From Marsupella aquatica (taxonomy: Eukaryota > Plantae > Marchantiophyta), in NCBI GenBank assembly GCA_973895155.1, contig OZ316895.1:2467659-2531658 (forward strand): a stretch of 64,000 nucleotides of DNA. Direction: 5' to 3'. Shown one piece after another: positions 5,641 to 50,908 of the stretch. Made by a program: the position numbers and the translations under genes. Within the stretch, counting starts at the first letter, position 1, and every line of letters begins with the position of its first letter. The notes below the pieces were generated by a model. It did not search any database, was not told the DNA's origin, and saw only the letters and a program-made list of their open reading frames with translations.

Positions 5641-6860
5641 TTCCATTCTACTGCAAATGAGAATTTTGCTTGCAATAACATTACGATCAACAACAATCAT
5701 TTCACATCGCATTCCTTTTGAAGGTTGGTGAGGTGTTTTGGAGGAGTGTGCCAGCTGAGCTTGAAGATCTTCACTAGAGACGTGTTGTCCAGCTTCTATG
5801 TCTAAGTTTTGGTCGTAGGGATTGTTGTTCTCTTACTCTGCCTCCTCTTGTATTCCTCGTTTTCACTATCGCATTGATTGTTTTGCTCTTGATGGTCTTC
5901 TTCATCCCAGGTTCTACTCGTTGCACAAGCAACAGTGGCATAGGAAATATCCCAAGCTACAACTGATTCCCCAATATTTGACTGATTTGCATATCAGATG
6001 TGTGTCAAGACATCCACCAATGTTGTGTGTCCCTTCAATTTCTACTTTGTTGTTCAGGTCACTTCTTGCCTGAAACCCTGATATTGTAATGTCCTGTGTT
6101 TCTATCAAATCCATAGAATACTCAAAAGTAACCTAAGCTATAGCTCCCGAGCGCGATTGACTGATAAAAAATGGTATGTCCCGACATGTACAATTTGGTC
6201 TTGAAAATCTCCAGGCTCTTGTCCATCCTAAGGCATGTCCAGCTGCTTCATCGTTTGGCCCGCGGCCGAGCCCATGAGAGCCATCGCAATTGCCCTAAGG
6301 TTTCTTGGGTCAAGGCTTCAATTCCCAAATGACCAAGCCCTTCAAGATCACTCCATCATTCACTTTCCAGACTTTGCATTTCCAAAACTCAACTAGTAGT
6401 AAGCTAACTTTGACATTTGGTCCCTGTGTATCTAATGGAATTTGATTTTTGTTTGTTTCTTAAAAACTAATTGGGAAGATTGTTGCCACGAGGCTAACAT
6501 CATCAAATTCCATTGAGAATTGAGAGTCTTATGAATTTCCAATGATGACTAATAACCTGATGTAGAGCGCCCTAAGAAGACCTTAATCAAAGAAACCTTG
6601 GAAGATAACCTGAGTTGGGCAGAGAGATCAACTTAAAATCACAAGCACCACGTGCAATCCAAAAGTTGATCTTGGATTGGATTCGTAAGTCACCCTAAAG
6701 CTAAGTCAAATAACTGACAACTCACCCACCTTCTAGTGCTTTAGAGAAAATTCTATCGTTATCAGTGTGATTCCGTCCTGGTTGGGGTAGAATCATAACG
6801 ATACTTTTGAAATCCCTTAATATCAGATGCACGTGTGATTCAATCCATCCTGGTTGTCAA

Positions 6861-7190
6861 TGTCACACCATTCTGAGTAGTGTAGTAGTATATCGTGTTA
6901 TTAGAGTATGTACGTTTGGTATGAGTGCTATTGGAGCCGATAAGGTTCTGTCAGGTTTGTGTGAGAGGGTACTTCTCACTTGTGAGGCATTGAAAGGTCA
7001 TCTTTCAATGTTGAGCCTTGGAGAGAGAGGAGCTTGAGTGTGGCTATGGTGGTTGTGAGCTCCGCTTGTGTAACGTGGATTCCTTGAGTAGTGCAAGGTG
7101 CGTTGGCTTGACATACGTGTGTGATCGGATCGGTGCGGGATCGATGGGGTATTGTTGACCGAGATCGTTGTGCCGATTGTATGGAGATTA
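6861..7190 (+). repeat. Terminal repeat A1 (330 bp)
   Basis: Identical to 15980-16309 except T/C at 6898/16017 and 7053/16172. Confidence 0.95.
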
Positions 7191-7201
7191 CATTGAAAGA
7201 T
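7190..7201 (+). promoter_or_regulatory. Putative self-priming primer-binding site
   Basis: ACATTGAAAGAT at the end of A1 is the exact reverse complement of ATCTTTCAATGT at 7000-7011. No TGG-type tRNA PBS is present. Confidence 0.65.
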
Positions 7202-7460
7202 CACATTCGAAATCTGTTTTACGGACTGTGCGGACAGAAGTTCGATTGATTGAGTTGTCGACGGTTCGTGGTAGCTCGGATTGTGTGTTGTTATCGAACA
7301 GATCGTTGGTATCTTGACCTGTATCGTTGTTGTCCGATCGGCTTGCTTCTCGATCGATGTACAGATCTGTGATTGGTGACAGGTTTTGAGTTGGAGGTCG
7401 ATTGATGATTCGTGGAGGAAAGCGAATGTTGAGTAGATGTTGGACAGTGGAAGTCGATCC

Positions 7461-7550
7461 GTGAGGCTTCAGATCCGATTGCCGGCTACTGTGAGGCTTC
7501 AGATCTGATTGTCGGCTACTGTGGGGCTTCAGATCTGATTGCCGGCTATT
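7461..7550 (+). repeat. 3 x 30-bp tandem repeat in the retroelement 5' leader
   Basis: gtg(a/g)ggcttcagatc(c/t)gattg(c/t)cggcta(c/t)t at 7461, 7491 and 7521. Confidence 0.9.
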
Positions 7551-7788
7551 GTTGGACGATGTTGGCAAGGCGCAGGTGAAGCGACGGCTCTTTTCCTGAA
7601 GGAACGGAGCTGCCAATGCCCCATGCGACGATATCATCGTTTCAGTGAAAGAAACGAGGGTCAAAGGTGTTGAATCAAGCTGCTGCCAGTTCTGTGGAAG
7701 GGCTGTGTTTTTCATGAAGGAAATCGACAGTTTTCGGGAGCTTTTCGTGAAGGAAGTAGTCATTTTTGGGGTCAGGTGTGAGGCGCAC

Positions 7789-8029
7789 GAGGTCACCCAT
7801 CCCGAAAGTGCTCGCGTGAGGCGACGCGTGAGGTCACCCATCCCGAAAGTGCTCCCAACCGTGAGCGCGAAGTCACCCATCGCGAGCGCAGGCAGGCGCA
7901 AGGTTGAGGTCACCCATCCCGGGGCTATTCCGGGCTGTGAGCGCGAGGGGAGGCACAAGGTCGAGCGCGAGGAGGTCACCCATCCCGGGGCTATTCCCAG
8001 CCGCGAGCGCTTAACTGGCAAGTTCTCAT
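7789..8029 (-). promoter_or_regulatory. 5S rRNA-derived internal control region (A box-IE-C box) plus four extra C-box-like copies, antisense
   Basis: Minus strand 8029-7970 reads atgagaacttgccAGTTAAGCGctcgcggctgggaatagccccgGGATGGGTGACCTCCT, colinear without gaps with the plant 5S ICR as I recall it. GTCACCCATC recurs at ~7792, 7833, 7872, 7909 and 7975. Confidence 0.7.
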
Positions 8030-8748
8030 CCCACCTTGTGTACACACAAGCTTTGACAACTTGTTGTTTAGATTCAAGCGCCAGGGGGCTTTATACACTT
8101 CCCGGTTTGTTTAGAGGCCTATTCTAGGCCAAATCAGAGGCTGTTTGAGGGTTTTTGATACTTCTGAGTCCATCTAGACTCACAGATTGAACCAATTTTG
8201 CCTTGGTTCTCATCTACAACATTGGAGTGCCATTGTGAAGCCTATTATGAAGGCTCTTCCTTGAACCTTATGCACATTATCATATTGATTTGCATTTGCT
8301 TTTGTGTGGAGAGTTGAATGGTATCCATTCTTGTTTCTGGATCCTCTTCACACATGTTTCCTGTTTATGCGCCATGTTAGTTTCGTGTGGGCGCTTGATT
8401 CCATAGGAGTGATCCGGGTTTGCAACTGGACATTCTAGTGTGCTGTGTATTTCTCTCTTGGTGATGTTGGAGTGATGCCCAACACACCATGGTGAGTGCT
8501 TGTGGTGCTGACAGGGATAGATTGCCCTTAGGGTTAGCACATAGATTAGGTTAGGGTTGGTCACCACGGATTCTTCTGGTGCTGCTGGATTACCCGATGG
8601 ACGACGGACCGGTTTCACTCGGAGTGGGGCACAGTTTCGGCCAGCGGCATTGGTAGCAGTCAGCAGTGCAGCTTCAGACAGTGATTCTGATGAGGACTCA
8701 GTGACCAGTTCTCCTCATCATCAGGTGGTTGCACCTTTGTTGTGGGAT

Positions 8749-9800
8749 ATGGACGAGATGTACGGGGCTACAAAGGGCCCACGACGATACTCTGGTGCAG
8801 TTGGCACAATTGATGTGGATGACTTCATCCAGGAGTTTGATACGTGGTGCGATATGCAGACATTGCGTAATGTCACGTTGTTTACCCCTTTCATGGCATG
8901 GAAGGGATTATTCCAGCATTTGGAGGGGCCACCAATGGATGACTACCATGAGTTTTGGAAGGCTCATTTGGTTGAGATTGAGGCATGGAGGCAGCATTGG
9001 TCGCCTAATTACGTGTCCATCACCTATGGCACTAGTGCGGCTGCCCAACCAATTGCCACAGCTGCTGCTTCTTCTAGCAGCACTAGCCAGAGTGGCACAC
9101 CATCCACCAGCAGCACTCCAGCAGCATCCACCACTACTCCTGCCGGTGTGATTGTGACAGGAACTGGAGTTGCGCCAGCATTTAATCTTGTGGTGGAATT
9201 CTTTGAGGTACTGAAGCAGAACTATCAGGGTGTGAGAACTGATAAGTTGAAGGGTCTTCAGGAGTTCCAACGCAAGACTGGAGAGAGCCTACGTGAGGCA
9301 TACACATGTATGCGCAGATTGATCACTGTCACCAAGGGAGTGACAGAGGCTCAGGCAGTCCAGTTTTGGTATGCAATTCTGGACAGAGAATTGCGACGCA
9401 GAGTGAGAGATGTCACTCTGCTTAGGGATGCAGATTCCACATTAGCAGTTGTTTTCACCCTTTCTGAGCGCATTGAGCTCAACATGGTGAATGAGAAGGT
9501 GGTGACTTCCGGATTTGCCAAGGAAGCACCAAAGGCTGCATCTACATCCACACCACATCCTACTGCACGAAAGAGCCAGAGGGAGAAGCCTACTGCACGA
9601 GAGTCTACCAGCCAGAGACCTGTGCCCTCTTATGCTGGACAACAGTCAGGATGTTGGACCTGTGGTGGGGATCATGCACAGAGATATTGTCCAGATCATA
9701 GAGGATCAGGGGGAGCATCAGCGCCTGATCAGCGACAGTGTGATCATTGTGGAGCTCCTGGACACACCAAGGATAGGTGTTTCTCACTCCACCCTGAGTT
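8749..9800 (+). other. gag: Gag domain with two zinc knuckles
   Basis: Capsid-like 'FQRKTGESLREAY'; knuckles CWTCGGDHAQRYC and CDHCGAPGHTKDRC; RGG-rich tail follows. Confidence 0.85.
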
Positions 9801-10659
9801 ACGGAGAGGAGGATCCCGTACACATGATCAGGGAAGAGGAGGTAGAGGTGGTGGACGTGGTCGTGGCATGCCACATGCAGGGAGACAGGGAGGTGACGCT
9901 GCCCCTGCTATAACCATAGATCCAAAGGATGCTAAGATTGCTCAATTGGAGCAACAACTAGCTGCCATGGCTAGTTCCCAGGTGAGACCTAATTCTGGTG
10001 ATGGGGCATCTACATCCTATGGACCTTCCACATCCCATGGTCCTTCCACATCTTATGGAGCTGATGGAGACCTTGCCACCATGGGATTCATGTGTGGCAC
10101 TGCACATATTGATGCATCAACAGCTTTGACACGTGGGGCAGCCAAAACTCTTGAGCCCCGAGGAGCAGTAGTGGAGTTAGATCCACAAAGGGGGGATGCA
10201 CGTCGGCAGACAAAGCTTCCTCAGTCTTTTACATTGTCAGAGACAATTCAGACTGCCTCTATGAACCCGGTTCGGACAAACCCTGATGTGGGTAAGTTGG
10301 CAGAATCAGGTAGTGATGCAGCAGGGATGACATGTACCTTGCTGGGGGCGGCTACTGCCATAGTACGCACCCCATTATTTTCAGCGACAGACATGCTGAA
10401 CTTGGGAGTTGGTCCTGTAGAAGTGTTCAGATTGGCAGCTACACTCTGTGAGGACACTCCAGTGGTTGCTTCCCATGCAGAAGCAACTTGTAGTGTTGAT
10501 GCAGTGAAGACCATGCCACCTACTGCTACTAGTGAGACATGGCATGCAGCAGCAGCGAGGTTGGTGGATTTACCAGCACGCCCTGCATTTGAGAGGACTA
10601 GGTTTAAACCTAGTGTTGTGTCATTGGATAATCGGAGTGGTATCTTCCGATTAGTTGGG

Positions 10660-11010
10660 CCTTCTGGAGCAGTATACCAGCCAGAGAGAGTGTTACTGGA
10701 TACTGGTGCTCAGCCCTTGATGTTGGGGAAGTCTGCCATACGTGGATTGGGATTGCGTCCAGAGGATTTGGAGGATTGTCCCTTTCCCATTCAGACTTCA
10801 TTGGGGGGACCTACACCTACACAGCATATCACCAGGAGACCACTTGATTTGAGGATTCAGGAAGGTCATACCACAAATAGCTCACAGATACAGGCGCGAG
10901 CTATTCTGACTAAGGCAGAGTCATATGATGTGTTGGTGGGATGTACAGTGCTCTACCCCATGGGATTTATTCTTGATTTTTGGGAGGAATCAGTGTCATA
11001 TAGACCTGAT
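10660..11010 (+). other. Aspartic protease domain
   Basis: VLLDTGA active site at ~10690 and 'YDVLVG' motif. Confidence 0.8.
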
Positions 11011-11400
11011 TGGCAGTCAGGAGATGCTCGATTGAGCAAATTGCCAGTGAGATTTAGTGGACCTGTGGGAGGCTCTAAATCCACACCATTGTCTTTGGCA
11101 GCATTTAGTGGTGTAATTGCTGGACCTGATGATTTGATTGAGGGTAATGCGCATGCAGCCGATGTTCCACCATTGGAGGAGTCTCATGAGGAGCACATCA
11201 TGCGAGGGTTACCTGTTGGCAGTGTTGTGCCACCAGTGTGGGGCACTGCACAAGCCTTGCCACAGGCAGCAGCACGATTGGTACATGATGCATGGCGTCA
11301 TGCTTTTACACCACAGTCAGGAGTAGAGCAGTCTCTTGCAGATGGACCTGTGATTCTTTCACCATTGGATACCACTCCTATTGCTTGGCAATATCCACCG

Positions 11401-12345
11401 GAGGGTATTTGTTTGTTGGATCTTTTTGGTGGGATTAGCACTGGATTGGCTGTTGTTCTTCAGGCAGGAATTCCTGTGCGTCGTTATTTATATGTGGAGA
11501 CAGATGAGACAGCACGGAGGGTCTCATTGCGACATGTGGCTATGTTGGTGGATAGATATCCATAGTTGCTACCAGTGGATGCTGTTCGTGGTTATCAGCA
11601 TGCACTACCTGCTGATATTTCATTGCTGGGGGCGGATCATCTGCATTGTGTTGGCCCCATTGATTTGGTGATTGCTGGTTGGCCATGTCAGGGCCAATCT
11701 AGAGCTGGCGTTGGGCATGGACTTCATGATCCACGCTCTGCATTGTTTTGGGAGATGTTACGGGTGCTGCGTCACCTCCAGCTACATCAGACACAGTCTC
11801 CTGCATACATTTTGGAGAATGTGCCATTGTTAGGTGATGATCGTAGTCGGATTGTTGCCAGTGTTCACCAGGTGAGGTCTTGGATTGGACCTGCTGTGTT
11901 ATTGGATGCTGCACGTGTGGGTTCTCGTGCACATCGTCCACGCTTATGGTGGACTAATTTGATCCCATATGAGGTGTTGAAGCGCGCATTTGACAGTATT
12001 CCACGCTCACCAGCCTTAGTGGTGGATGATATTTTGGATCCAGGGCGTCGTGCACAGGGTGTGACCCAACCTGATAGACCTCCATTGGCAATGGTCAATG
12101 CAGTTGGGTGCCCACGTTGTGCATTACCCACTCTTGTAAGCCACTCTGCTTCATATGCATTCAGAGCAGGTGGCCCTGGACTTGTATGGCACACAGCTCT
12201 CCAGCAGTTAGTGGAGCCTATTGCTGATGAGAGAGAGCGTGCTATGGGATTTTTGACTGGCACCACTGCAGTTGCCTCTGTGTCAGAGGGTTTGCGGCGC
12301 CAGGTTCTTGGTCAAGCAATGGATTTGAATTGTTTGACTTGGATT
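11401..12345 (+). other. C5 cytosine DNA methyltransferase domain inside Pol
   Basis: Motifs in canonical order: I LLDLFGGISTG, II YLYVE, III ADI, IV IAGWPCQ (Cys codon 11686), V DPRSALF, VI ILENV, VIII HRPRLWW, IX ERERAMGF, X LGQAM. Confidence 0.92.
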
Positions 12346-12699
12346 ATCAGCTTGGGAGTAGCTGAATAGTTGCGGATGCGCTCTGCCGGAATTACTGATT
12401 GTCCCTTGGTGAGCTTGCGGTCCACTGAGACAGTATTGACCACAGCTGGGGGCGAGCAAACAGTCCATGGACCTATGACAGGATTGGCAGCTGGACAGAT
12501 TGTTGAGCAGGAAGAGACTGCTCAATCTACTGCTAAATAGCAATCATCGGCTATCTCTTCTACCCTACAAAGAGATATTAGGGATTTGGTGGAGAGTTGG
12601 GAACCACAGCTTGGCCCTAAGTTAACAGAGGAGGAGAGACGTCGCATGCATCGATTCCTGAAGAGTTATTGGAATTGTTTTGCATTCAGCATGAAGGAT

Positions 12700-13410
12700 T
12701 TGGGGACATTGAAGGGCCCTGGTATTCAGATTGAATTGGCTAGTGATGCGCCAATCTTTCGTAGACCATACCGTTATAGTGACATGGAGAGAGCTCTGAT
12801 TCAAAGCAGAACTCAAGATTTGTTGGAGGCTGGATTAGTGGAGATTTCATATGGGGAGTATGCATCTGCCACAGTGATGCCAGCCAAGAAGGATGTGCAT
12901 GGCAATTACACAGATAGGCGCATGTGTGGTGATTACAGACCTATTAATCGCCAGACAAAATCTGATCGATATGCCATGCCCACACCTGAGGAGATCTTTG
13001 ATGCTGTGGGGCATGCAAAGGTTTTCAGTTCATTGGATCTGAGGGCAGGATACCATCAGCTTCCAATTAGGCATGCTGACAGGTCCAAGACAGCATTCTG
13101 GGGGATTGATTCTTATGGCAAAGATCGTTTGTATCAATGGTTATTCTTACCATTTGGGTTGAAGAATGCACCAGCTGAGTTCCAGAGAGTCATGGATCGA
13201 ATCCTTGCAGGTTTGGATTTTGTCAGATGTTATATTGATGATATTTTGGTCTATTCTTCTACTGTGGAAGAACATCAGCAGCACTTGCAGACTGTGTTGG
13301 AGAGATTGAGAGCACATGGGTTGAAGCTCCATCATAGCAAGTGTAAGTTCTTCCAAGACCAGATTGAGTATTTGGGCCACACCATATACCCAGGGGGATT
13401 GGGTGTACAG
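12700..13410 (+). other. Reverse transcriptase domain (Ty3/gypsy type)
   Basis: RMCGDYRPIN, FSSLDLRAGYHQ, KTAF, LPFGLKNAPAEFQ, YIDD (13231), IEYLGH. Confidence 0.95.
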
Positions 13411-13659
13411 CAGACTAAAGTGGAGGCCATTACACAGATTCCTTGTCCTACTGATGTGAGTAGAGTTCGTGCATTCTTGGGATTGGCGAGCTACTACAGG
13501 AGGTATGTTAAAGGATTTAGCCAGCTTGCTAAACCTTTGACCATACTCACTAAGTTGGATCAGGAATGGATTTGGGGTGATGACCAGGAGCATGCCTTTC
13601 AGGAGTTGAAGCAAAGGTTGGCATCATCCCCTATTTTGAGAAGACCCATTTCAGGCAGA

Positions 13660-14020
13660 CCATTTCAGCTACACACTGATTAGAGTGGAGTAGGACTTGG
13701 AGCAGTGCTGACTCAGAAGGATGATGAGGGGAATGAGTTTGTTGTGGCTTATGCCAGTAGATCAAACAATTCAGCAGAGGCTAAGTATAGCTCTTATGAG
13801 GGAGAGTGTTTGGCAACAGTGTGGGCTGTTGCACACTTTCGTTGCTACTTGTTTGGTAACCCCTTCACCTTGATCACTGATCATCAGCCTCTTAAGTGGT
13901 TAATGGAGTCTGACAAGCTTACAGGGAAGCTTGCACGATGGGCATTGTTGTTACAGGAGTATGATTTCCAGGTGGTGCATAGGCCTGGAAAAGTGAACTT
14001 GGATGCAGATGGATTAAGCC
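13660..14020 (+). other. RNase H domain
   Basis: FQLHTD*S, VAYASR, YEGECLA, TDHQPL, ADGLSR. Confidence 0.9.
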
Positions 14021-14419
14021 GCAATCCATGTACCAGTCAACAGGATGAGACTGGAGCCAGATGGCATGATGAGTCAGATAGGGAGATGGTGCCAGGATGG
14101 CATGCATCTGCCTTTCTTTGTTGGGTGCCAGCATACAGTGGATCTGTGGACTCTACCTCATTGGATGGAGTGGATGATGAGTCTTCAGATGTGGATGTTG
14201 GTGAAGTAACTTCTGGACAGTAAGATATTCACAATGATGTGAGAGTGTTGGAATATCTACGCAATAGTTCTATTGTTGGCAGTGTTGATGCCAAGGAACG
14301 TGACAGGGTTCTACAGAGAGCCAAGAGGTTTCGATGGGAGGGAAACCATCTTTTGAGAGTACTGCATGATGGTAGGATGTTGGTGGTACCAAAACCATCA
14401 CAACGAGTACATTTGGTGC

Positions 14420-15480
14420 GACATGCGCACGAGGAGTTGGGTCACTTTGGTGTGAAGCGCACTTACAGCTTGCTGCAGACGCAGTATTGGTGGCGTGGTA
14501 TGCACACTCATGTCCAGCAGTTGATAGCTAAGTGTGTGGTATGTGACAGAGTGAGAGCATCATTTAATGCTCCCACTCCCTAGTTGCACCCATTACCGAT
14601 CATGGGTTTGGGATATCGTTGGAGTTTGGATTTTGCTGGTCCATTACCTCTTACCCAACGTCATAATCGGTATGTTTTGGTCATGGTGGAGCACTTCTCC
14701 AAGTGGATTGAGCTAGTGGCGTTGCCAGATAAAGCCAGTGGAGGAGTTGCTGCTACATTTTTGGATCGTGTACTCAGTCATTTTGGAGCACCAGCTGAGG
14801 TGTTGACTGATCAGGGAACTGAGTTCCGTGGAGAGTTTGAGAGTTTGTGTGAACAAGCTCTGATTGATCATCGCACTACCTCTCGTGATCATCCTAAGGC
14901 AGATGGATTAGCTGAGAGAGTTGTGCAAACTGTGAAGAGAGGATTGCGTAAGTATGGCTTGCAGGTTGGTCATCTGGGAGATTGGGATCTCCAGCTACCT
15001 TGGTTAGCTATGGGCTACCGTTTCAGTTGGCAAGCATCACTTGCATCCTTCTCACCCTACTTTTTGCTCTATGGTAGAGAGCCAGATTTGCCAGCAGCTA
15101 TTCGTCGTCATGCTGCACCAGTTGTGAACTTGGATGATCCTGATGTTTGGGTCAAGGTGTGTTCAGAGAGAGCACGGGTATTTCAGAGAGTGATGCCCAT
15201 GGCTTTTGACAACCTTGCCATTGCCCAACATCGTGATACTTTGAGGTATGTCACTATTCGTGGAGGAGGTTACCGTGCAAGCATTCGACGATTTCATCCT
15301 GGTGATTATGTTTATTTGCAGCAGACAACACCCACGACACTTGATGTGACCGCAGGCCGGACAATCTTACGTGTGCGTGAAGTGTTGCCTTCTGGTGTCC
15401 TGATGTTGGAGGGACGCGATGGTATGGTTTGGAAGGATCATGTGCGCAACTGTGCACCATGTCACCTTCCCAACATTGAT
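14420..15480 (+). other. DDE integrase
   Basis: HHCC zinc finger (HEELGH...CVVC); catalytic triad in WSLDF / TDQG / AERVV; 'SPYFLLYGR'. Confidence 0.92.
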
Positions 15481-15525
15481 GGTACAGTAGATCCAAGCTT
15501 GGCACATGTTCGTGCTGGCTTGAAA

Positions 15526-15660
15526 TGTATGTTGTGTGGATCTGCTCAGGGAGCAGCTACTATGTTGATTTGTGATAAGTGTTCTAGAGGATGGCACATG
15601 TCATGTTTGACACCACCATTGCAGGTGATTCCTAGTGGATCATGGTTGTGTCCTCAGTGT
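15526..15660 (+). other. C-terminal PHD finger (C4HC3) on the integrase
   Basis: CMLC...MLICDKCSRGWHMSCLTPPLQVIPSGSWLCPQC. Confidence 0.92.
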
Positions 15661-15830
15661 CGGTGAAGCCGACTAGTTATCATTTGTGTTCTCTTGGCAG
15701 ATATGGATTGCAGGTAGGTGATCGATGGGGCTCACTTGCACCCGGCCTCCTGATCTTCACACCTAAAAAGGTGTATATCAACCTTGTAGAACTCATGGCT
15801 AGCTAGAGTTAGGGGACCTTACTCCCAGCT

Positions 15831-15840
15831 AGGGGGGCGA
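15831..15840 (+). promoter_or_regulatory. Polypurine tract
   Basis: AGGGGGGCGA directly upstream of repeat B1. Confidence 0.75.
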
Positions 15841-15841
15841 T

Positions 15842-15977
15842 TGTGGGTTTTGGACATGTGTGGACATGAGTTCCACTTGTATTCCATTCTCTTGTATTTG
15901 TGATGTGGTAGTGTGACTATGTCTGGATGTATGTGACAAGCGATGTATGTTGTGTAGCGATATGTATGCGCACGACA
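15842..15977 (+). repeat. Repeat B1 (136 bp)
   Basis: Identical to 16311-16446 except C/T at 15891/16360 and T/C at 15909/16378. Confidence 0.95.
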
Positions 15978-15979
15978 GC

Positions 15980-16309
15980 TGTCACACCATTCTGAGTAGT
16001 GTAGTAGTATATCGTGCTATTAGAGTATGTACGTTTGGTATGAGTGCTATTGGAGCCGATAAGGTTCTGTCAGGTTTGTGTGAGAGGGTACTTCTCACTT
16101 GTGAGGCATTGAAAGGTCATCTTTCAATGTTGAGCCTTGGAGAGAGAGGAGCTTGAGTGTGGCTATGGTGGCTGTGAGCTCCGCTTGTGTAACGTGGATT
16201 CCTTGAGTAGTGCAAGGTGCGTTGGCTTGACATACGTGTGTGATCGGATCGGTGCGGGATCGATGGGGTATTGTTGACCGAGATCGTTGTGCCGATTGTA
16301 TGGAGATTA
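15980..16309 (+). repeat. Repeat A2 (330 bp)
   Basis: Copy of 6861-7190, separated from B1 by the dinucleotide GC. Confidence 0.95.
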
Positions 16310-16310
16310 T

Positions 16311-16446
16311 TGTGGGTTTTGGACATGTGTGGACATGAGTTCCACTTGTATTCCATTCTTTTGTATTTGTGATGTGGCAGTGTGACTATGTCTGGATGTA
16401 TGTGACAAGCGATGTATGTTGTGTAGCGATATGTATGCGCACGACA
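16311..16446 (+). repeat. Terminal repeat B2 (136 bp)
   Basis: Copy of B1, ends in GACA followed by TSD TCAA. Confidence 0.95.
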
Positions 16447-17159
16447 TCAAGCCATATATGAGAACAATATCTTGCAAATCCCTTCCTTTCCTTTTTCTTT
16501 GATTTTAATGGTTTTTAAACATAGTAACTTAAAATATATAATGAGTATTCCACTTTATTAATCTGGCTTGTCTTTGCAAATTTTCTTTCTTTCTACTATG
16601 GAAAATATTAATCTTTCAATTTTCTAAATTCTTGGGAAACTCTCTTGGTTCCTTCACCTCCCCACCTGGCCAAGATTTAAAGCCTTGTTGTCATCTTCTA
16701 GTTACAGTGGTCCATGGCCACACTCTCTGCCATCCATGCAACCTCCTCCTTACAGTTCCCTTCCATGTGACCTCCCTCATCTATCTTGTCTATTTTGCAT
16801 AGCTATTATACAATTGAATTGCAAACTGAACTACTTAAAACTCAATCCAAAACTAGTGATACCCTCAACACTAAATGTCTGTCATTGCAAAATTCATAAA
16901 ATCTACTCTTTCAAAGGCAAATCAGGAATAATGCATGAACAAATCCAAAATAGTACTATCTTCCTCCGAACACAACGCCTGGGCATTGTGTTCAAAAATG
17001 ACATTTTGGGGTCCTAAAAGCAAAAAGTGGTTTTTCTTCAAACACATCAACATTAAAAGTAACCATATTCTTGTAACTGCCCAAACAAAATTTCCAGAAC
17101 AAAAGAAGCTAAGGACCCTCCTCTCTCCTCCCTTAGCATCACGTGGTTTGATAATGGCC

Positions 17160-21000: not shown

Positions 21001-22020
21001 TTGAGTCATCTTCTGTCTGTCGTTGGCGTTGGCGTTGGCTTTTGACCTCGGCGAGGAGGAAGAAATCCAGCGCTATAATATTACGATAATATTACGAGTA
21101 GCTCGTAAGAACGTTTTTGGTTTTGGTCACGAGGTTTTGTTCCCTTCTTCGTTAAAATCTTTATCATGAACTCAATTTGCCACATCAGCTGAACCTCGGA
21201 ATCAATGTCTAATCAGCTGTCAGATATTCTTGTTGAACTGTGAGCAGGTGCTGCAGAGGACGTCGGTGACTTCGGTGGGCCTTTGTGGTGGAGGAGAAGA
21301 AACTGGCTATTAGGAAGTCTCCGTGGGGGCTTTGTAGACAAGGGCACGGAACCTGAGAGTCATCTCGGCACCAGTGTTTTAAGGGGGTAAAGGCACTCTG
21401 CTAGGGAATGCTGGTAAAGAAATGCCGTGGCGAAATCCCTCAACCGAGTACGCATGTAGTAGGTGGATGTCACGGGCCAGTTCACGCACGAGGTAGGGAA
21501 ACTCGGCGTCGATTCACCCTGTACCGTTGCTGTGTTTGGACTCGTTTGAGTCGACTATAATCGAAGTTGGTTTACGAGTTCGAAGCTGACGGTCAGCTTG
21601 TTCCGCTGGGAAGCACATTCATAAAAATACTTAGCATCTGTTTGTGACTCCAACCCTCTCGGATTGCCCACGGAAGCTGTGAGCAGGGACGAGTCGTTTC
21701 ATCATGACCAGGTGCTTCGTCCGGGGGAGTGAGCACGATTGACAGGAATGAGTGCTCAGCAGGATGCCAACCCTCAGTTAGCTTGCTGGTGGAGTTTATT
21801 CAGCTCGCCTTAGCTCATGGTCGATCAGAGGGTTTATGCGTATCCAGGTTACATAACCCGTCTTAGGAGCGAAAGCGAAGTACTGTGTTGGATCCGTGGG
21901 TTTAAGACTTGGTGGGGGAGGATTATTGTTTTGGGAATCTTCGTTCAGCGTGACGTGTGGTCTTCGCAAAGGAGAAACTCATGCTGGAGAAGAGCATGCG
22001 TGACAATTTAAGTTCGGGTA

Positions 22021-23280
22021 ATGCCCCTAACCAGCTCTGCCGTGGATGCTTTTGGAGTCACGACCCTGGTGCTCGTCATTTTGTTGTGCTTCGTGGGAGT
22101 ATTCTGTGTGGCCTACGTCCTCCACTTTCGATCAAAGATACATAAAGAGCAACTCCTTGCGTTGCGTGATTTCAATTCGCTATGGGTGGTACGGATTATT
22201 ATGATAATTTTTGCGACGCTATGGGGACTCGTGGAGCTTCTTCGACTTCCTTTGATGAGGAGACATGGATGGGTGCTGCACGACATGAGTTTCCAGTGGC
22301 AGGCAAATATGTGCAGGACGTACATTCTTTTGTCGATGGGTCTCCTGGAGCCCTGCTATTTTCTCTCAGCTCTCTTTTTGGTGCAGGGCTCGCTTCGAAA
22401 TGCTCCATTCACTCCGAGAGGACGTTGGAATGGGAGGGTGATCGGTTTGATATTGCTCTGCTGCTTGCCTGTGTTTCTTGCTCAGCTCTTTTTTGTAGTC
22501 ATCACTCCCAGTTTCGAATTTCGACAAGGGTATAAAGTGGACAACGAAGGTTACGATGGAACTCTGCCGTATTATTTTACTAGAGCATTCGAGGAATTGG
22601 AAGAGCCCAAGGACCGCGTAGCAGTTTGCACATACCCCCTCTTCAGCACCCTGTCCCTGGGCCTTTTTGGTTTCTTTTATAATATTTATTTCCTGTATTT
22701 GGGTTGGAGGCTTTTCTCCATGGTCATCAACAGAAGACTGCAACTGAGGGTTTATGGCCTTGTTATGGCGGTGGTATTACTTCTGCCTGTACATGTCATG
22801 TTTCTCGGACTGTCGGTCTTGTCCAACCCTAGTGAGCCCGTTTTTGAGGCTATGGGATTCCTGGGATTCCTTACTGTGCTCGTCTGCACCACTGTAGGAG
22901 AGGGTATTTTGGTTGTAAGACCCATCGCTGATGCATTAGCAGTGCGGTGGGTTTTTGAAAGCGACGAGCGGAAGAAGAGGGGCACGCAAGGTGAGATACC
23001 GATAGAGCCGATTCTAGTCTCACTATCCTCTCTATCAGTTTTTGGAACGGAGATGGATGAAGCAGCTATAGGTGCTAGGCAGAGTCTCCTGGGAAAGATT
23101 ACTGTTACATCTAATGATCACCGTTCAGATGCCGACTTGATGGAGGTTGCCCTCATGCCAGTGGGAAATTCGAGGATCTCTTCAGCAGATACAAATGGCA
23201 TACTTAACTCTCCTCCTGATTCGCCTGCATTACCCGGAAAGCCCTTTACCTTTCAACACAACCTTCATGCTCTAGTGTAG
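22021..23280 (+). CDS. Conserved plant multi-pass (about 7 TM) membrane protein of unknown function, 419 aa, intronless CDS
   Basis: Long ATG ORF with about 7 hydrophobic segments. N-terminus 'MPLT...DAFGV' resembles an uncharacterised land-plant family. Probable 5' UTR intron 20719(GT)-21247(AG). Confidence 0.85.
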   Translation: MPLTSSAVDAFGVTTLVLVILLCFVGVFCVAYVLHFRSKIHKEQLLALRDFNSLWVVRIIMIIFATLWGLVELLRLPLMRRHGWVLHDMSFQWQANMCRTYILLSMGLLEPCYFLSALFLVQGSLRNAPFTPRGRWNGRVIGLILLCCLPVFLAQLFFVVITPSFEFRQGYKVDNEGYDGTLPYYFTRAFEELEEPKDRVAVCTYPLFSTLSLGLFGFFYNIYFLYLGWRLFSMVINRRLQLRVYGLVMAVVLLLPVHVMFLGLSVLSNPSEPVFEAMGFLGFLTVLVCTTVGEGILVVRPIADALAVRWVFESDERKKRGTQGEIPIEPILVSLSSLSVFGTEMDEAAIGARQSLLGKITVTSNDHRSDADLMEVALMPVGNSRISSADTNGILNSPPDSPALPGKPFTFQHNLHALV

Positions 23281-25395: not shown

Positions 25396-25810
25396 TGCTA
25401 TATGGTGGAATACCTTTTGGTTGTTCTTGTCTTATTCATGTTTCTTGTCATGTATTTTTATATGCATTTGACCTAGTGTAGGCTTTTGTTTTGTATCATT
25501 TCAAATTTAGTAATTTCTTCTAACCCCCTTAATTTTTTAAATGCCTTAGTTCCAATCAGGTAATTTAGAGTAAATGTTGATCTTTTTATGACTCTACTTT
25601 GCTCTGCTCAATTCGTCCTTATTTCTGAGAAGGAGAGACTCTCCACCAGGCTCAACGGAGCAACTAGAACTCAACAGTTTTATGTACTGTAGCTTATATC
25701 CCCATTGGGTTGATAACTTTACAATACTTATGGTTTATACATCAATAAGTGTCACCTACAAATACAACTCAAAATTAAAGGTTAAAAAGTTCAAGTATTT
25801 CTCTTTCAAC
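25396..25810 (+). repeat. Dispersed repeat copy 1 (probable transposon remnant)
   Basis: Reverse complement of ~50485-50908, e.g. ttatttctgagaaggagagactctccaccaggctcaac versus gttgagcctggtggagagtctctccttctcagaaataa. Confidence 0.8.
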
Positions 25811-43505: not shown

Positions 43506-43765
43506 CTTCGAAATGGATACATACATTTTACAGATGCCATAGATGGATTGAAGTTAGCCTCAAAATGGACACATACATTTTACAGATGCCATAGATGGAC
43601 TGAAGTTAGCTTCGAAATGGATACATACATTTTGCAGATGCCATAGATGGACTGAAATTTGCTTCCAAATGGACACATACATTTACAGATGCCATAGATG
43701 GACTGAAGTTAGCTTCGAAATGGATACATACATTTTACAGATGCCATACACGGACTGAAGTTAGC
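43506..43765. repeat. Minisatellite, 5 x 52 bp
   Basis: aaatgg anchor at 43511, 43563, 43615, 43667 and 43718; unit ttcgaaatggatacatacattttacagatgccatagatggactgaagttagc. Confidence 0.92.
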
Positions 43766-44621: not shown

Positions 44622-47296
44622 TCACGCTGTAGGGCTTAATTTTAGAGAAGCACTGCAACACAGAAACACAACTGTTATTCTAATCACAAGTATGCATAGC
44701 GGACGTAAGATAATCAAACCCCAAGAACCGTTACGATGTCTGTTTTGTGTAAGTGAGATTCACAGAAGACCTACCCAGTTTCTAGATTTTTGTTCTCCAA
44801 TTACATTGATCGCGCACAGCAGACAATGATGTAGCTTCCTACAGACAAAAAGTTGCCTTAGCATTTACCTGTTAATACAATAGCGCTTCCCTGTTGGCCG
44901 AGGTCCGTCACTGAAAACATGACCTAAATGTGCATCACACTTGGCACACAGAACTTCTGTGCGTGGCATGAATGGGATTGACCGATCCGTTTCTGATTTT
45001 ACGTTTTTCCCAATAGGTTCCCAGTATGATGGCCATCCAGTACCACTGTCAAACTTTGTCTTTGAGCTGTAACAACCCTCGCACAATACCAACAGAATGA
45101 AGTCAAGACCCTCAAATTACTGAGGCTTGGGCGACCATAGCTAGATCAGTGGCAAGTACTATATTTCCTTGCTATTCTGTTCTGTGCCTATTGCTAAAAA
45201 CGTCAACAGAGGAAGGTCCAGTGCATTGAGTATCACTTAAGAAAGGTTTATCCTAGTCCTTTCCCTGAAAATAATCTTACAGTATTTCCGTATAGATTGA
45301 ATTTCAGGATAGGATGGCCTTCCAGCGAGAGTTCAGATACAAAACAGTGAAATACAGCGAATATGAAAATTGCAAAGGATCAGAAATTCATTCACAAAGT
45401 GAACAAGCATCTAGACGCCCACGTCATATATCCCTTGATAGATGATATACTACTGGAATGGAAACCTTACTCAAATAATGGAGTACTGCAACATACACAT
45501 AGATATGTTCCTGCCGTCTTTGTGTTCCAATATTCCCTGTACAAGTCCACCAATATCTCTGAGAAACTGTTGTCGACTTCAAGTTCAACATGATTGCTAC
45601 CTGTCAACTACAGAGTCCAAACCAAATAGTTGGTCCACACAAAAGAGGATCCAAAGTATTCATAATCTGTGGAAGCCCGCAGAGTTGACATCCTGGTGAC
45701 CTACCCTGTAAACGCTCGCTCTGTTCCTTTCTTCCGAGCAACATTAAACTGCTCGTTCGTGAGACGCCGCTTCCATTCCGAGTCGCTGATAGATGAATAG
45801 TTCTCCTCTGCATATGCCAAACTGATATGGTTAATTATGAAGAACCACAAGTATTGAAATGATAGTCAAGATCTAGAGATTTCACTTTACGGGCTTCAAA
45901 TGAGGTCAACGCAGTTTGTAACATAAGAAAATTCTATGGGTCGCTCACCAGTACTCGAGAACTCCTGGGCGGAGCTTTTCGCACTGTCGGGGTCTATTTT
46001 GTGGGTAGAGCTCGAGCTGCCCATAGCTCTTAACCTTTCACGACTCTGTCTAGTTTTGAAAGAGGCGAAATCAGCACCTAGGAGCCAATTTTGAGGAGAC
46101 AGAACCCGCTCTAAATGACGTGAAGGGCGGCTGCTCACAACTTCAATTCGGGAACCGCTCCCACCTGTCAGAGAACCCACTTCCACCACCACACAGAATC
46201 TGAGAAGGTGCTAAGAAACGAATTAGTTTGCATCCTTCAACCCTTCCAAAACATTCTTCCGTTGCAAGCTTAAATTCTGGGTTCAAGCCATTCGCATTTA
46301 TTCCAATCGACACGTCTTCTCGTTGCCTCTCTCTGCTATCTCTGCAGAGCTAAGAAATTGATGTCCTCAAATTTCTCAGGTAGGGATGTCCAAAGGGATG
46401 AGTTTTCTCCCCTCCAACCACGTCAAGTTCTGCTCAAGGGAGGTTTGCTGAAGTTTTCACAGCAACATCCTGAGGACGATCCACAAACTAATTCTTGCAG
46501 ACGAGAATTACCAAGAAAAAATCCTCCCTGAAGCCCTGAATTTGGATAATCAGGCAGATGGATGGCTCTATCAGAAAATACAAGTACAATTACAGCCCCC
46601 AGGGAATAAAATCTGTATATATTGTTCAATATGCTGAACCCTGGAGACTGATATATCTAGATAATTCCGTCTTCACTATAATGGCAGGACAACTTATCCA
46701 GATGCTCGCTCTAGTCATTCACCGTCGTCTTTGCAAAATTTCTTTTCCAGCGGTGTCCTTCAGACCTCTTTCAGTTTTGTCACAAAAAGTTTTCCTAAGC
46801 TTAAACATCACTCTCCGAAACAACCACATTGAAAATCTAGGGCCATGCCCATTTCCGAATTCACTAGAGCACTCGCGGTTGTCGGCAGGGAGGCGACAAC
46901 TCGAAGCCCCAAATTATAATCTTGGAGGGCCAGTCGATAGCCGACCCAAACCACGGAGAGAGAAAATGACCTCAACGGGGAGTAAACATGTAAAACCCAG
47001 AGATCAGCTCTGTTGCACGAAACTTTGTCTCTATGATTATAAAAACAGACCAGTCCAGATGCTCTCTTTCATATCCACGATAGTAGAAGCAATCTTCCTG
47101 ACCGAGCTGACCAAAACGATGAAGGAAATGGGAGACAGTCAATCATGCAGAAGTTCAAGTTGCTCCATTGCAAAGGTGATAGACATACCGTACTTGCGCT
47201 CGCCAATTCGCAGCCTCGCAATGCCCGAAATGGAATTCTTGCAACAGCAGCAGCTGAATAAGCGTAGACCCGAAGACGGGGAAACAAATCGCCCAT
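44622..47296 (-). CDS. MSRB1: Peptide methionine sulfoxide reductase B, plastid MSRB1-like, spliced
   Basis: Exons ~47296-47189, 46210-45949, ~45810-45705 (EWKRRLT...GTERAFTG), ~45537-45470 ([16 protein letters not shown]), ~45066-44869 ([11 protein letters not shown]...HLGHVF...RYCIN) and 44652-44622. First exon is inferred from phase. Confidence 0.9.
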
Positions 47297-50200
47297 GAAC
47301 TGGAGCAGCAGCAGCGTGGTGTGTCATCAGCGACATAAGGTGATCGACACGGAAACGGCCGCGTGAATCGACGTGGACCTTGCAAATTACGACAACCCAA
47401 CGAACCTTCGTGTCGACCTCCCTATCTTCTTTTCGCACTTTCTATAATAAAGGATACAAATTTCCCCGTCTTACTCTGACTCAAAGCATTCTGCGTCTCC
47501 GAAATCCTACAACTCTGTAATACAGTACCTCTTTTCCTTGGTCGTCAAAATCAGTCCAATCCAATCTTATTTGATTGCATTCAATTTACTTCAATTCAAT
47601 TCGATTCGATTCGACACTGTGAGAGTTAGCCGCAGACCAGGAACGATGGGAAGCCTCAGCCGATTTCGAGCTGGCAGTGCGAAGGGCAGAATCGATGGGA
47701 GTTTTTGTGGGTAAACAGAGAGAATGGACTGGTGGATGCAGACCGTGGTATGGAAGCTGATGCGAAAGCGATGAGAGGATGATGGAGTTTGGCGATCTGT
47801 TTCTGTGAGCACGTGAGGGACAAATGCGATTCTGGATTGGTCTCGTCAATTCGATGAAGGAGGGAGAGTGACCACAAGAGGAGGAGCACGTGGTGCAATG
47901 TGAGCGATTCAAACTCAGAAGGTAACAGAGGAGAAACAAAGGCAAAGAGCATTTCCGTTTGTTGTAAAGGACCTATTTACTGAAAATGGCCAAATAACAT
48001 ACAATGGAGTAAAAGGAAAGAGGTCCAGACATAACAGGAACCTCAAAAAGGACATGGAAAAAATCACGCCAACCTCAAAAAGGACAGGGAAAAATCATGC
48101 AAACTCCATAAACATAGAAAGAGTACCAAATTAATAAGAGATAACTTACTCACAAAGTAGAATTGCCTTATAACTGTTTTAATTTTTATGGTCTTGTTTG
48201 TTGGTGAAAACTGAACCCAGAGGCAGCCATTGTTTGGTGCGCTAATATTAGCCTAAATCTTATGTTGAAAAAGAACTGGCCAATAATACTCAGAAATGAA
48301 TTGTGAAAAAGTTGAATCCACGGTGATGGATGATTAGCCAGAAAGTACTATAAATTAACTATCTGTTGTGTAAAACTAGGTTTCATGTCTTCCTGTAGTG
48401 TAGTGTTCCTGCCCTCCTTATAGAGCTAGTTGTCGCTATAGCAAATATTTCAAACTAAGAAAAAATTGGGCTGCCTGATGCTGTTGAGCAATGAACCATT
48501 CATAGACAGCATAAACATGTAAAGAAACATAGTCAAAAAAAGAAGAAGAATGGACACAAGAGATATGTGTTTCACCTCTCCAAAACACTATGTCCACAAG
48601 AAACACAAAAGAATCTTGTTGCACTTTAGATGAGTTGGTGATACCAAGTTTCACAAGCTCTTTCTATCTCTCATACATCTCCTTAATAATGAGCCTAATT
48701 TCACTCGCAGTTAACTCTTGTTTCTGCATATACTAAGTAGTATATCTAATCTTCATCAGATATCTGATTAGGATTAGATTTATTATGTTACAGAGTAACT
48801 CTAGACCAAAGAATAGATGCATAACAAGACATTGTGGATAAGTGGTAATGAAACCTTTTGGTGTGAATTGTGTGCATACATATAGATCTATGCAATATCA
48901 AGATACATAATTATTTTGGCTAGAAAATTCATATTTGTAAGAAAATGGCGGATTGAAGGGAGACCCACCAGAGCAGTCACCACCATGCGGACGGGGACTT
49001 CTAGCTGCTGGCTAACTAAGCGCCAAATGAGAAGTCTAAGGGGCACTTTACAAGACGGGCGCAGCACTTCACTTCTCTTTTGAACTTGATATTTTTCATC
49101 TGACCCGTTCATTCAACCTGCCCGGGCTGATGCTGCTTTAGAAACCTATTGTGGTAAGTTGTGTGTCGGGGGTACCCAAACCTGCGTGTGCCCATGGTTC
49201 GGGTACTTTTAAACAGGCCTGGGGCTCTCAGCCAGGCGGAAGACTATCGCACCAAAGGAGGTGCGATAATGTTATGGCCGTCTTGCCCTTGCGATTTCCC
49301 ATTATTCACGGTAGTGGTTCAGCTGAAAATTCATGCTTCCTGCGAGCGATTCGAACTTGGGGGGCTGGGAGGGAGCTTTGAGAGAGGCTTCAAATTACAA
49401 ATTTCAAGTAGTTGCATTCTTCCACGTCCCTACCGTGGAAGATGACGACAATATATGGACCAACAGCTCCTCATCTGGGAGCACTTGTTATTCAATTTTG
49501 GATTTTCCAGGAAGAGATCGCAACAGTGTTGGAGTTCACGACAGTGTAGACATGGCAAGAATTGGTAATTTCTCTTCTTGGCATGAGAAGATGCGATCAG
49601 CACCTGTGCCAGATTCTCAATTTTCACAGGAATTTTCCCAAGGAGCCCACAATATGTTCAATGCCAAGTTTATGGCACTCATGAATGAACCTTTATTGGT
49701 TTCACAATTCTCTGCTCCTCAGTTGCTGCCCGTTGCTTCCTCTGCTCCTTGTTTCTCTCAATCAACGTCATTTGATCACTAGTTGTGCCTGGGAAATCCA
49801 TTCTGGTCCAAAGCAAACCAGGAAATTCCCTCTATGCAGATATGCCAAGCATCAGAGAATCCACGAGTAGCGCCTACAAGCGGTGAGGGGGCGATTGCTG
49901 GAAAGAAATGGGTAGCTGGGAAAAAGAGCTCAAAGAAGGCCAAGAAGGCCAAGAACATCGATGCTGATCAGGAAGGGGATGAAGATGTTGACTAATCTTC
50001 AACAATCGCTGGGAGGATGCAAATGTAATACAACTCAAAGTGATAAGACGATAGTTAGAGGTACATATGGCAAGAGATATTGAACATGATGTTCTGTGCT
50101 TGTATAGATGCAATGCTCAATGTGATGAACATGTACAATCACTGAGACAATCTATCATTGAAGTACTCGTTTTAATTTTGCTATGTATTTTGTAGAATAG

Positions 50201-50484
50201 ACCTATCCGTAAACTATGGGTTAATACTGGTTTTGATTATCAAATATTTTCCTATGCTTAACTTTCATTTTGTGTTGCTCTTGTCATGTTACAGTGTTAC
50301 TTTTTGTCGAGAAAGAGTTACCAGTCATGCATGCCTGTTTGAGAAAGTTTGCGGATAGATTCAATTGTTGTCTAAAGGTGCACAAAAGAGGCACCAAATG
50401 AAATACAAGTATACCGACAGGATTGATTTGTCACCAACCCTATGTCTGTAGAATTTCAGGATTTTTGTATGGTACAATTGTGTT

Positions 50485-50908
50485 GAAAGACAAATACCTG
50501 AACCTTTTAACCTTTAATTTTGAGCTGTATTTTTAGGGGCTCTTTATTCAGGTGACACTTATTGATGTATAAACCCATAAGTGTTGTAAAGTTATCAACT
50601 AACAGGGATATAATCTACAGTACATCCAACTGTTGAGTTCTAGCTGCCCGGTTGAGCCTGGTGGAGAGTCTCTCCTTCTCAGAAATAAGGACAAATTGAG
50701 CAGAGCAAACTGGAGTCTTAAAAAGATCAACATTTACCCCAAAGTACCTGAATGGAACTAAGGCATTTAAAAATTAAGGGGGGTTACAAGAAATTACTAA
50801 ACTTGGAATAATACAAAAAAAAGCCTAGACTAGGTCAAATGCATATAAAATACATGACAAGCAACATGAATAAGACAAGACAACCAAAAGGTATTCCGCC
50901 ATATAGCA
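50485..50908 (-). repeat. Dispersed repeat copy 2 (inverted relative to 25396-25810)
   Basis: Long stretches of reverse-complement identity with copy 1. Confidence 0.8.

Follow-up and report, generated by a model that had tools for sequence, protein, structure and literature searches.

A liverwort gypsy-type element with a Dnmt3-like domain whose integrated ends lie inside its replicative LTR

Introduction

According to the legend of Fig. 4c in de Mendoza et al. 2018 (PMC5890265), KnitGypsy-Dnmt3 of Klebsormidium nitens combines gypsy domains with repeats arranged as in DIRS. The element analysed here lies in a 64,000-nt stretch of Marsupella aquatica DNA (the window), and compared by published description the two are alike: each has a Dnmt3-like domain in the gypsy Pol frame and DIRS-like A-coding-B-A-B repeats. 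Unlike the present account, the excerpts of that paper on which we draw describe KnitGypsy-Dnmt3 without ends, target-site duplication (TSD), palindrome, primer site or mechanism. They treat the family as K. nitens-specific, whereas relatives of the window element also occur in Calypogeia, Marchantia, Sphagnum and Closterium. The repeat layout is thus already published, in one figure legend (PMC5890265); its internal att site and its self-priming seem to be unreported. A literature search, with subscription journals, Repbase reports, theses and bioRxiv supplements outside its coverage, found no such mechanism in print.

In PFV, integrase acts on the palindromic 2-LTR junction by cutting each strand after CA, which gives a 2-nt 5′ overhang (PMC1180852), and HIV-1 integrase likewise cleaves the palindromic 2-LTR junction (PMC1905944, PMC4372172). 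As these sources present it, the palindrome is the LTR-LTR junction itself, a normal provirus results and the reaction is a side path; 2-LTR circles have long been considered dead ends (PMC4372172). The window element would share with PFV and HIV-1 a DDE integrase that cuts a palindrome after CA to give processed ends. It differs in that its palindrome sits 138 bp within the LTR and its end-to-end junction is non-palindromic, and no ordinary-ended copy occurs among those surveyed.

Split direct repeats (A1-B1-A2-B2) with the insertion point at B/A are described for the tyrosine-recombinase retrotransposons PAT, Toc, Kangaroo, Ngaro and Viper (PMC4157794). The window element shares split direct repeats with PAT and Ngaro as described there and differs by its DDE integrase, polypurine tract (PPT), primer-binding site (PBS) and 4-bp TSD, and the likeness to tyrosine-recombinase elements is probably convergent. 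Tf1/Sushi and Tcn1 chromoviruses are reported to have a self-priming PBS that is complementary to LTR sequence and not to a tRNA (PMC6317226). At the level of sequence, the PBS of the window element is likewise complementary to its own LTR; unlike the chromoviruses as described, the element has a PHD finger in place of the chromodomain, a DNMT domain and split repeats.

Ty3/gypsy elements are characterised by TG..CA ends and a TSD of 4–6 bp (PMC12440569), and both features are found here (TGTC..GACA and TCAA). A complete LTR at both ends with PBS and PPT as its borders, in the Ty3/gypsy style, is not: the ends lie inside the LTR that PPT and PBS define. Two described groups were considered and set aside. 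Troyka elements are given as having CG..CG ends and a 3-bp TSD and as restricted to animals (PMC12440569), against TGTC..GACA and 4 bp here. Phygy is credited with an NCGN insertion preference (PMC6317226), and none of eight TSDs in our set, in which the old copies have decayed, is NCGN. Gypsy-7a_cRei, with a PHD finger and what its description calls ‘LTR subparts’ (PMC9940879), and REM1, a Chlamydomonas gypsy element with a PHD finger (cited in PMC8557442), may overlap with the window element.

Structure of the element

The gypsy-type element is 9.6 kb long, spans 6861–16446 and reads A1-PBS-internal-PPT-B1-GC-A2-B2 (A-internal-B-GC-A-B); its 3′ end is the region covered by a preliminary description. 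The repeats, TSD copies, predicted self-primer, PBS, leader repeats, coding domains and PPT are all on the forward strand; the palindrome and the A/B junction are given without strand. A repeat search placed the two copies of A at 6861 and 15980 and the two copies of B at 15840 and 16309. Compared base by base, A1 (6861–7189) and A2 (15980–16308) differ at 2 of 330 positions and B1 (15840–15977) and B2 (16309–16446) at 2 of 138, all changes being C/T. The element opens with TGTC (6861), closes with GACA (16446) and is flanked by two copies of the 4-bp TSD TCAA (6857–6860 and 16447–16450). The 5′ leader holds short repeats (7461–8012), namely a 30-nt unit present 3.1 times at 7461–7552 and a 42-nt family at 7788–8012.

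The PPT (AGGGGGGCG, 15831–15839) directly precedes B1, and the PBS (7190–7201) directly follows A1. As the preliminary description had proposed, the replicative LTR is B-GC-A, since PPT and PBS flank it, and the PPT, B1, palindrome and A2/B2 features are all present where that description placed them. The palindrome, GACA-GC-TGTC (GACAGCTGTC, 15974–15983), consists of the GACA that ends B1, a central GC (15978–15979) and the first letters of A2. Its TGTC half starts A1 and its GACA half closes B2, so the element ends are the two halves minus the central GC. The preliminary description had recognised this relationship and omitted the TSD.

Gag and Pol share a single frame (8545–15666) with six premature in-frame stops (11563, 12367, 12538, 13681, 14221 and 14581). 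The domain order is gag-protease-Dnmt3-like-RT-RNaseH-DDE integrase-PHD, within which Pfam matches give the Ty3/gypsy Pol order protease-RT-RNaseH-integrase. The aspartic protease (10681–10830) is a weak match (E 0.008, under the curated cut-off). Reverse transcriptase and RNase H (12910–13962) follow, the reverse transcriptase being of the Ty3 type with Ty3 Gag-Pol as its best solved relative (E 3.6e-101). Between protease and reverse transcriptase lies a Dnmt3-like C5 cytosine methyltransferase domain (PF00145, 11407–11964), whose top PDB matches are DNMT3A, DNMT3C and DNMT3B (E 1e-12), with DNMT3A the closest. After the integrase there is no Pfam match to a chromodomain, and a C-terminal PHD finger (15526–15660) is found there instead. 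No match to a tyrosine recombinase was found in the element's ORFs on either strand.

The integrase motif of Ty3/gypsy elements goes by the name D,D(35)E. The DDE integrase core of the window element (14614–14916) is closest to that of Ty3 among solved structures, and its second D and its E are spaced by 34 residues (14809–14916), one fewer than in Ty3, PFV and HTLV-2. The same spacing occurs in 50 of 50 pattern-matched relatives among 120 listed, including the K. nitens protein P0007; it is a clade marker, possibly tied to palindrome cutting.

The near-identical repeats surround a broken frame, which suggests a young insertion that moved in trans; the 64,000-nt window holds no second copy. 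Between the methyltransferase and the reverse transcriptase, positions 12443–12455 resemble the PPT and its upstream letters and are a possible central PPT. At one relative locus (L002), the methyltransferase match is inverted and lies between parts of the reverse transcriptase match.

Relatives of the element

The integrase-PHD region has 452 relatives at E<=1e-20 among 4,263 candidates. Those named among the 120 listed come from Calypogeia fissa (up to 85%), Marchantia, Sphagnum and K. nitens, whose proteins are 53–55% identical to that of the window. Matches to the methyltransferase add Closterium; among the 107 DNMT matches, which comprise long proteins only, K. nitens does not appear by name. 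Judged by its relatives, the element likely has a bryophyte host. A full RT-RNaseH-IN-PHD relative, P0201, is labelled as coming from a bacterial metagenome-assembled genome and is likely plant or algal DNA in a bacterial bin. A search of viral contigs for relatives gave no usable locus.

The copy survey covers the best 80 of 263 metagenome loci, and the relatives in it are old copies in short-read metagenome assemblies, mostly of one family. Fifty loci with a visible 3′ end were grouped by flank into 36 independent insertions. Ten intact 5′ ends were available, that of the window included; L065 and L032/L033 were left out because their 5′ ends are damaged.

Primer-binding site and A/B junction

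Primer-binding sites of the tRNA type start with TGG. The PBS of the window element has no such start and is, over 12 nt, the exact reverse complement of 7000–7011, the 3′ arm of a hairpin at 6986–7012. Among 8,600 other internal 12-mers, not a single one is complementary to a stretch of A. Such complementarity is a signature of self-priming, and we therefore read 7000–7011 as the predicted self-primer and 7190–7201 as its predicted site.

Because the PBS complementary to the self-primer directly follows, A ends at 7189. This settles a one-base ambiguity that the repeats alone leave at the A/B junction (16308–16309), where base A16309 is compatible with either A or B. The predicted right end of the linear cDNA is joined there to the predicted left end without gain or loss, as claimed in the preliminary description. 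A different reading, in which A ends in GATTACA within a TG..CA LTR, is contradicted by both the A/B junction and the self-primer match.

The PPT before B is conserved in relatives. Predicted self-primer and PBS covary, with three distinct PBS sequences, each of them matching the A of its own element: that of the window, that of L008, L017, L036 and L059, and that of L051. The five other loci thus have the same primer/PBS arrangement in other letters. The complementarity falls to 8 nt or fewer in 6 of 10 decayed copies, which counts against the model.

Of 14 independent copies in the L008 family, 12 have an exact A/B junction, a count made without the L005/L075/L078 family (too decayed) and without L001 (which lacks A1). 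At the junction L010 carries a single additional G, and L028/L030 carry an insert of 19 letters that ends in CG; both match the PPT end. The 19-nt insert includes 11 letters repeated from nearby A and resembles repair filler. In retroviruses, joining of cDNA ends leaves primer leftovers and filler at 2-LTR junctions. Both inexact junctions carry PPT-like leftovers and are therefore what end-joining predicts. The preliminary description, which had named variable or indel-ridden A2/B2 junctions as evidence against its model, had the direction of this argument wrong: when a minority of junctions is imprecise and retains PPT leftovers, this favours end-joining.

To ask where B2 comes from, we compared B1 and B2 in 12 of the 18 groups that end in A/B (L008 family, both B copies present). 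The two share transversions within a copy (within copies 0.75, between copies 1.44; permutation p=0.0003). B2 copied from read-through RNA, the origin named in the preliminary description as incompatible with its model, would descend from the B2 of the parent, and the within-copy sharing speaks against it. The data support a B2 remade from B1 and not copied from RNA.

Individual loci depart from the common layout. L051 reads integrase-PPT-B-palindrome-A-PBS-leader at 8600–9317 without terminal overlap. Such an order could stem from a 1-LTR circle or a tandem copy, or from an assembly that ran through the repeat. In L046/L050, at about 180–815 after the integrase end, B-GC-A-PBS is followed by the first ~170 nt of A running backwards to GACA, and the 5′ end lies outside the contig. 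Tf1 is an element that retains its primer, and the 3′ end of L046/L050 looks like a retained copy of the self-primer, folded back.

Ends of the element and its relatives

Stops at the palindrome are the rule among relatives. Of 36 independent 3′ ends, 35 stop at GACA or a single-transition variant of it, and L035 does so with two changes; all ten intact 5′ ends start at the TGTC position, eight exactly and two with one change. Ends made by reverse transcription were seen at 0 of 36 3′ ends and 0 of 10 5′ ends, so that copies ending away from the palindrome, which would have spoken against the preliminary description, are not a feature of the set. By type, the 36 3′ ends comprise 18 A/B ends, 17 with B only and one B-A-PBS-inverted A.

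TSDs are perfect over 4 bp in seven of eight copies with both ends intact, and L017 matches in 3 of 4 letters. Their sequences vary (TCAA, CATA, AAGG, TCTC, TACA, TGTG), and none corresponds to the GC core. The TCAA duplication in the window is the best sign that the element ends are integrase-made. Variable 4-bp TSDs and the lack of a tyrosine recombinase match together support the view that a DDE integrase made the ends, and the use of an internal att site by this integrase is well supported; the observation itself holds clade-wide.

GACAGCTGTC occurs once in the window. Perfect 10-bp palindromes number 78 there over 64,000 positions (0.12% per position), and the chance of one at a pre-set junction is about 1/800. 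Conservation of the palindrome in other families is a stronger argument than these odds. It is found at B/A in 30 loci, in every one as GACAGCTGTC or a C>T/G>A variant, and is common to families whose A repeats fail to align with that of the window; a thirty-first locus, L052, was left out because its match lies in flank DNA. L057 and L059 have lost the B/A palindrome by a deletion between two ATGAC microhomologies, at about 277 past the integrase end, and L059 keeps an intact 5′ end.

The family of the window itself is present in public sequencing runs. Of 376 loose-end rows for its 3′ block, the 24 listed include 5 in which 51 contigs, from runs X2 and X3 of one study, pass into differing flanks at 15977/8 or 16446/7. 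Other copies of this family therefore stop at the same GACA. Loose ends before 16304 appear in all four runs of the 3′-block survey of the family and were set aside. Logan contigs are too short to phase across A and so to reveal or rule out A-B-A-internal-B, and their summed depth is not copy number. Four weak joints in the window family skip 81–163 nt of the A end up to near the start of B (sides of 20–30 nt, single contigs).

Mechanism of integration

For LTR elements and retroviruses, the integrated ends are assumed to be those made by reverse transcription, and whether 2-LTR circles are real precursors is an old and contested question. This clade separates integrated ends from reverse-transcription ends. 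We propose, with moderate confidence, that self-primed cDNA has its ends joined into a 2-LTR circle and that the DDE integrase cuts an internal palindrome of this circle and inserts it. The transcript would run from inside A1 to inside A2, and its own 5′ end would prime reverse transcription to give linear B-GC-A-internal-B-GC-A DNA. Joining of the A end to the B end would then yield a circle or a head-to-tail dimer, with an identical product. A 2-nt staggered cut at the palindrome, preferably the PBS-side one, would leave CA-3′ ends, the GC overhang being lost in repair. The extra A-B would equip the inserted copy with a repeated R region, which would be required in the following round. Copies of the A-internal-B type could come from 1-LTR circles, from cutting of both palindromes or from later B-by-B deletion.

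The preliminary description had the cDNA circularise before the cut at an internal att site. Our analysis upholds the internal att site, used by a DDE integrase, and the joined appearance of the A/B ends; the closed circle before the cut is less secure. A 2-LTR circle has two palindromes, and cutting the PPT-side one would give A-B-A-internal-B. This mirror product is missing: none of the ten intact 5′ ends has B upstream, and the full-length copies comprise six of the A-internal-B-A-B form and no mirror form (one-sided binomial p=0.016; the six include L065, whose 5′ end is damaged). A symmetric circle therefore needs an added bias, with integrase preferring the PBS-side palindrome, or a later collapse of A-B-A to A. 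Such a collapse, whether it took place in vivo or during assembly, would mean that some of the 17 B-only ends derive from mirror forms. The B-only ends, 17 of 36, also weigh against the model. From integrated copies, the source of all our evidence, closure before the cut still seems the likeliest order and is moderately favoured.

The missing mirror form and L046/L050, which have a GACA end without an A/B junction and so indicate that integrase can finish an end without that join, keep two linear-first alternatives alive. One is that the left palindrome of the linear cDNA is cut, both new ends are inserted and host end-joining closes the A/B break, with no free circle. Ends, TSD and the mostly exact junction would come out alike. 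In linear DNA left and right are distinct, a possible reason for the lack of mirror forms, and L046/L050 fit this route as well. It would also break the chromosome at each insertion, so that junctions might be messier than 12 of 14 exact, it has to explain why the right palindrome is spared, and the literature offered no precedent; we consider it rather unlikely, at roughly one chance in a handful. In the other alternative, the reverse transcriptase itself makes the junction: the plus strand jumps from the right end to the left end and recopies B, giving nicked circle-like or extended linear DNA that is cut at the palindrome. Such a jump accounts for the 12 of 14 exact junctions and for a B2 that matches B1, and the 1-nt overlap in the window and the L008 family, where PBS and B both start with A, would assist it. 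Against it, B starts with G in L001, the 19-nt insert of L028/L030 resembles repair filler and the four weak joints skip part of the A end, and we hold it to be improbable. Both alternatives share with the preferred circle-first explanation its core, the use of an internal att site by the integrase.

Two further explanations fare much worse. In a route like that of DIRS, PAT or Ngaro, A2-B2 would come from read-through RNA and a tyrosine recombinase acting in trans would insert the circle at B/A. The A1-B1-A2-B2 layout is indeed that described for PAT, Ngaro and Viper (PMC4157794). Variable TSDs that do not match the GC core and the absence of a recombinase match in the element's ORFs on either strand make this route very improbable, and it also disagrees with the tracking of B1 by B2 within copies and with a PPT and PBS placed on either side of B-GC-A, in the manner of LTR elements. 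That an ordinary LTR element was rearranged just once, or was misassembled, would suit the single copy in the window, and we give this next to no credence: 18 of the 36 3′ ends finish in A/B, in at least three families besides that of the window, the full-length copies L005, L008, L023 and L028 carry TSDs, and runs X1 and X2, either of which is possibly the source sample, have contigs identical to the left junction of the window element (6700–6887).

It is about an even bet that the full circle-first scheme holds clade-wide in streptophyte algae, liverworts and mosses, with att moved inside the LTR, the 2-LTR circle as an obligatory precursor and a mechanism that picks the PBS-side palindrome. 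The selector would perhaps be the shortened D-34-E integrase or the element's methyltransferase. If this is true, the clade, with relatives in Marchantia, would offer a natural system whose principal route is circle use, readable both from genomes and from free DNA, and a DDE element would have converged on the split direct repeats of tyrosine-recombinase retrotransposons. Repeat-finding programs built around LTR pairs are likely to miss or mislabel such copies.

Other features of the window

Outside the gag-pol frame, 14 stop-to-stop ORFs of 146–422 aa (e.g., 22012–23280, 46540–47298 and 56685–57464) have no Pfam match at E<=0.001. A 52-nt unit is repeated in tandem in five copies at 43506–43765, and there are 16 further tandem rows elsewhere in the window. 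A dispersed repeat forms an inverted pair at 25416–25810 and 50482–50889, the two members being 83–90% alike in three blocks.
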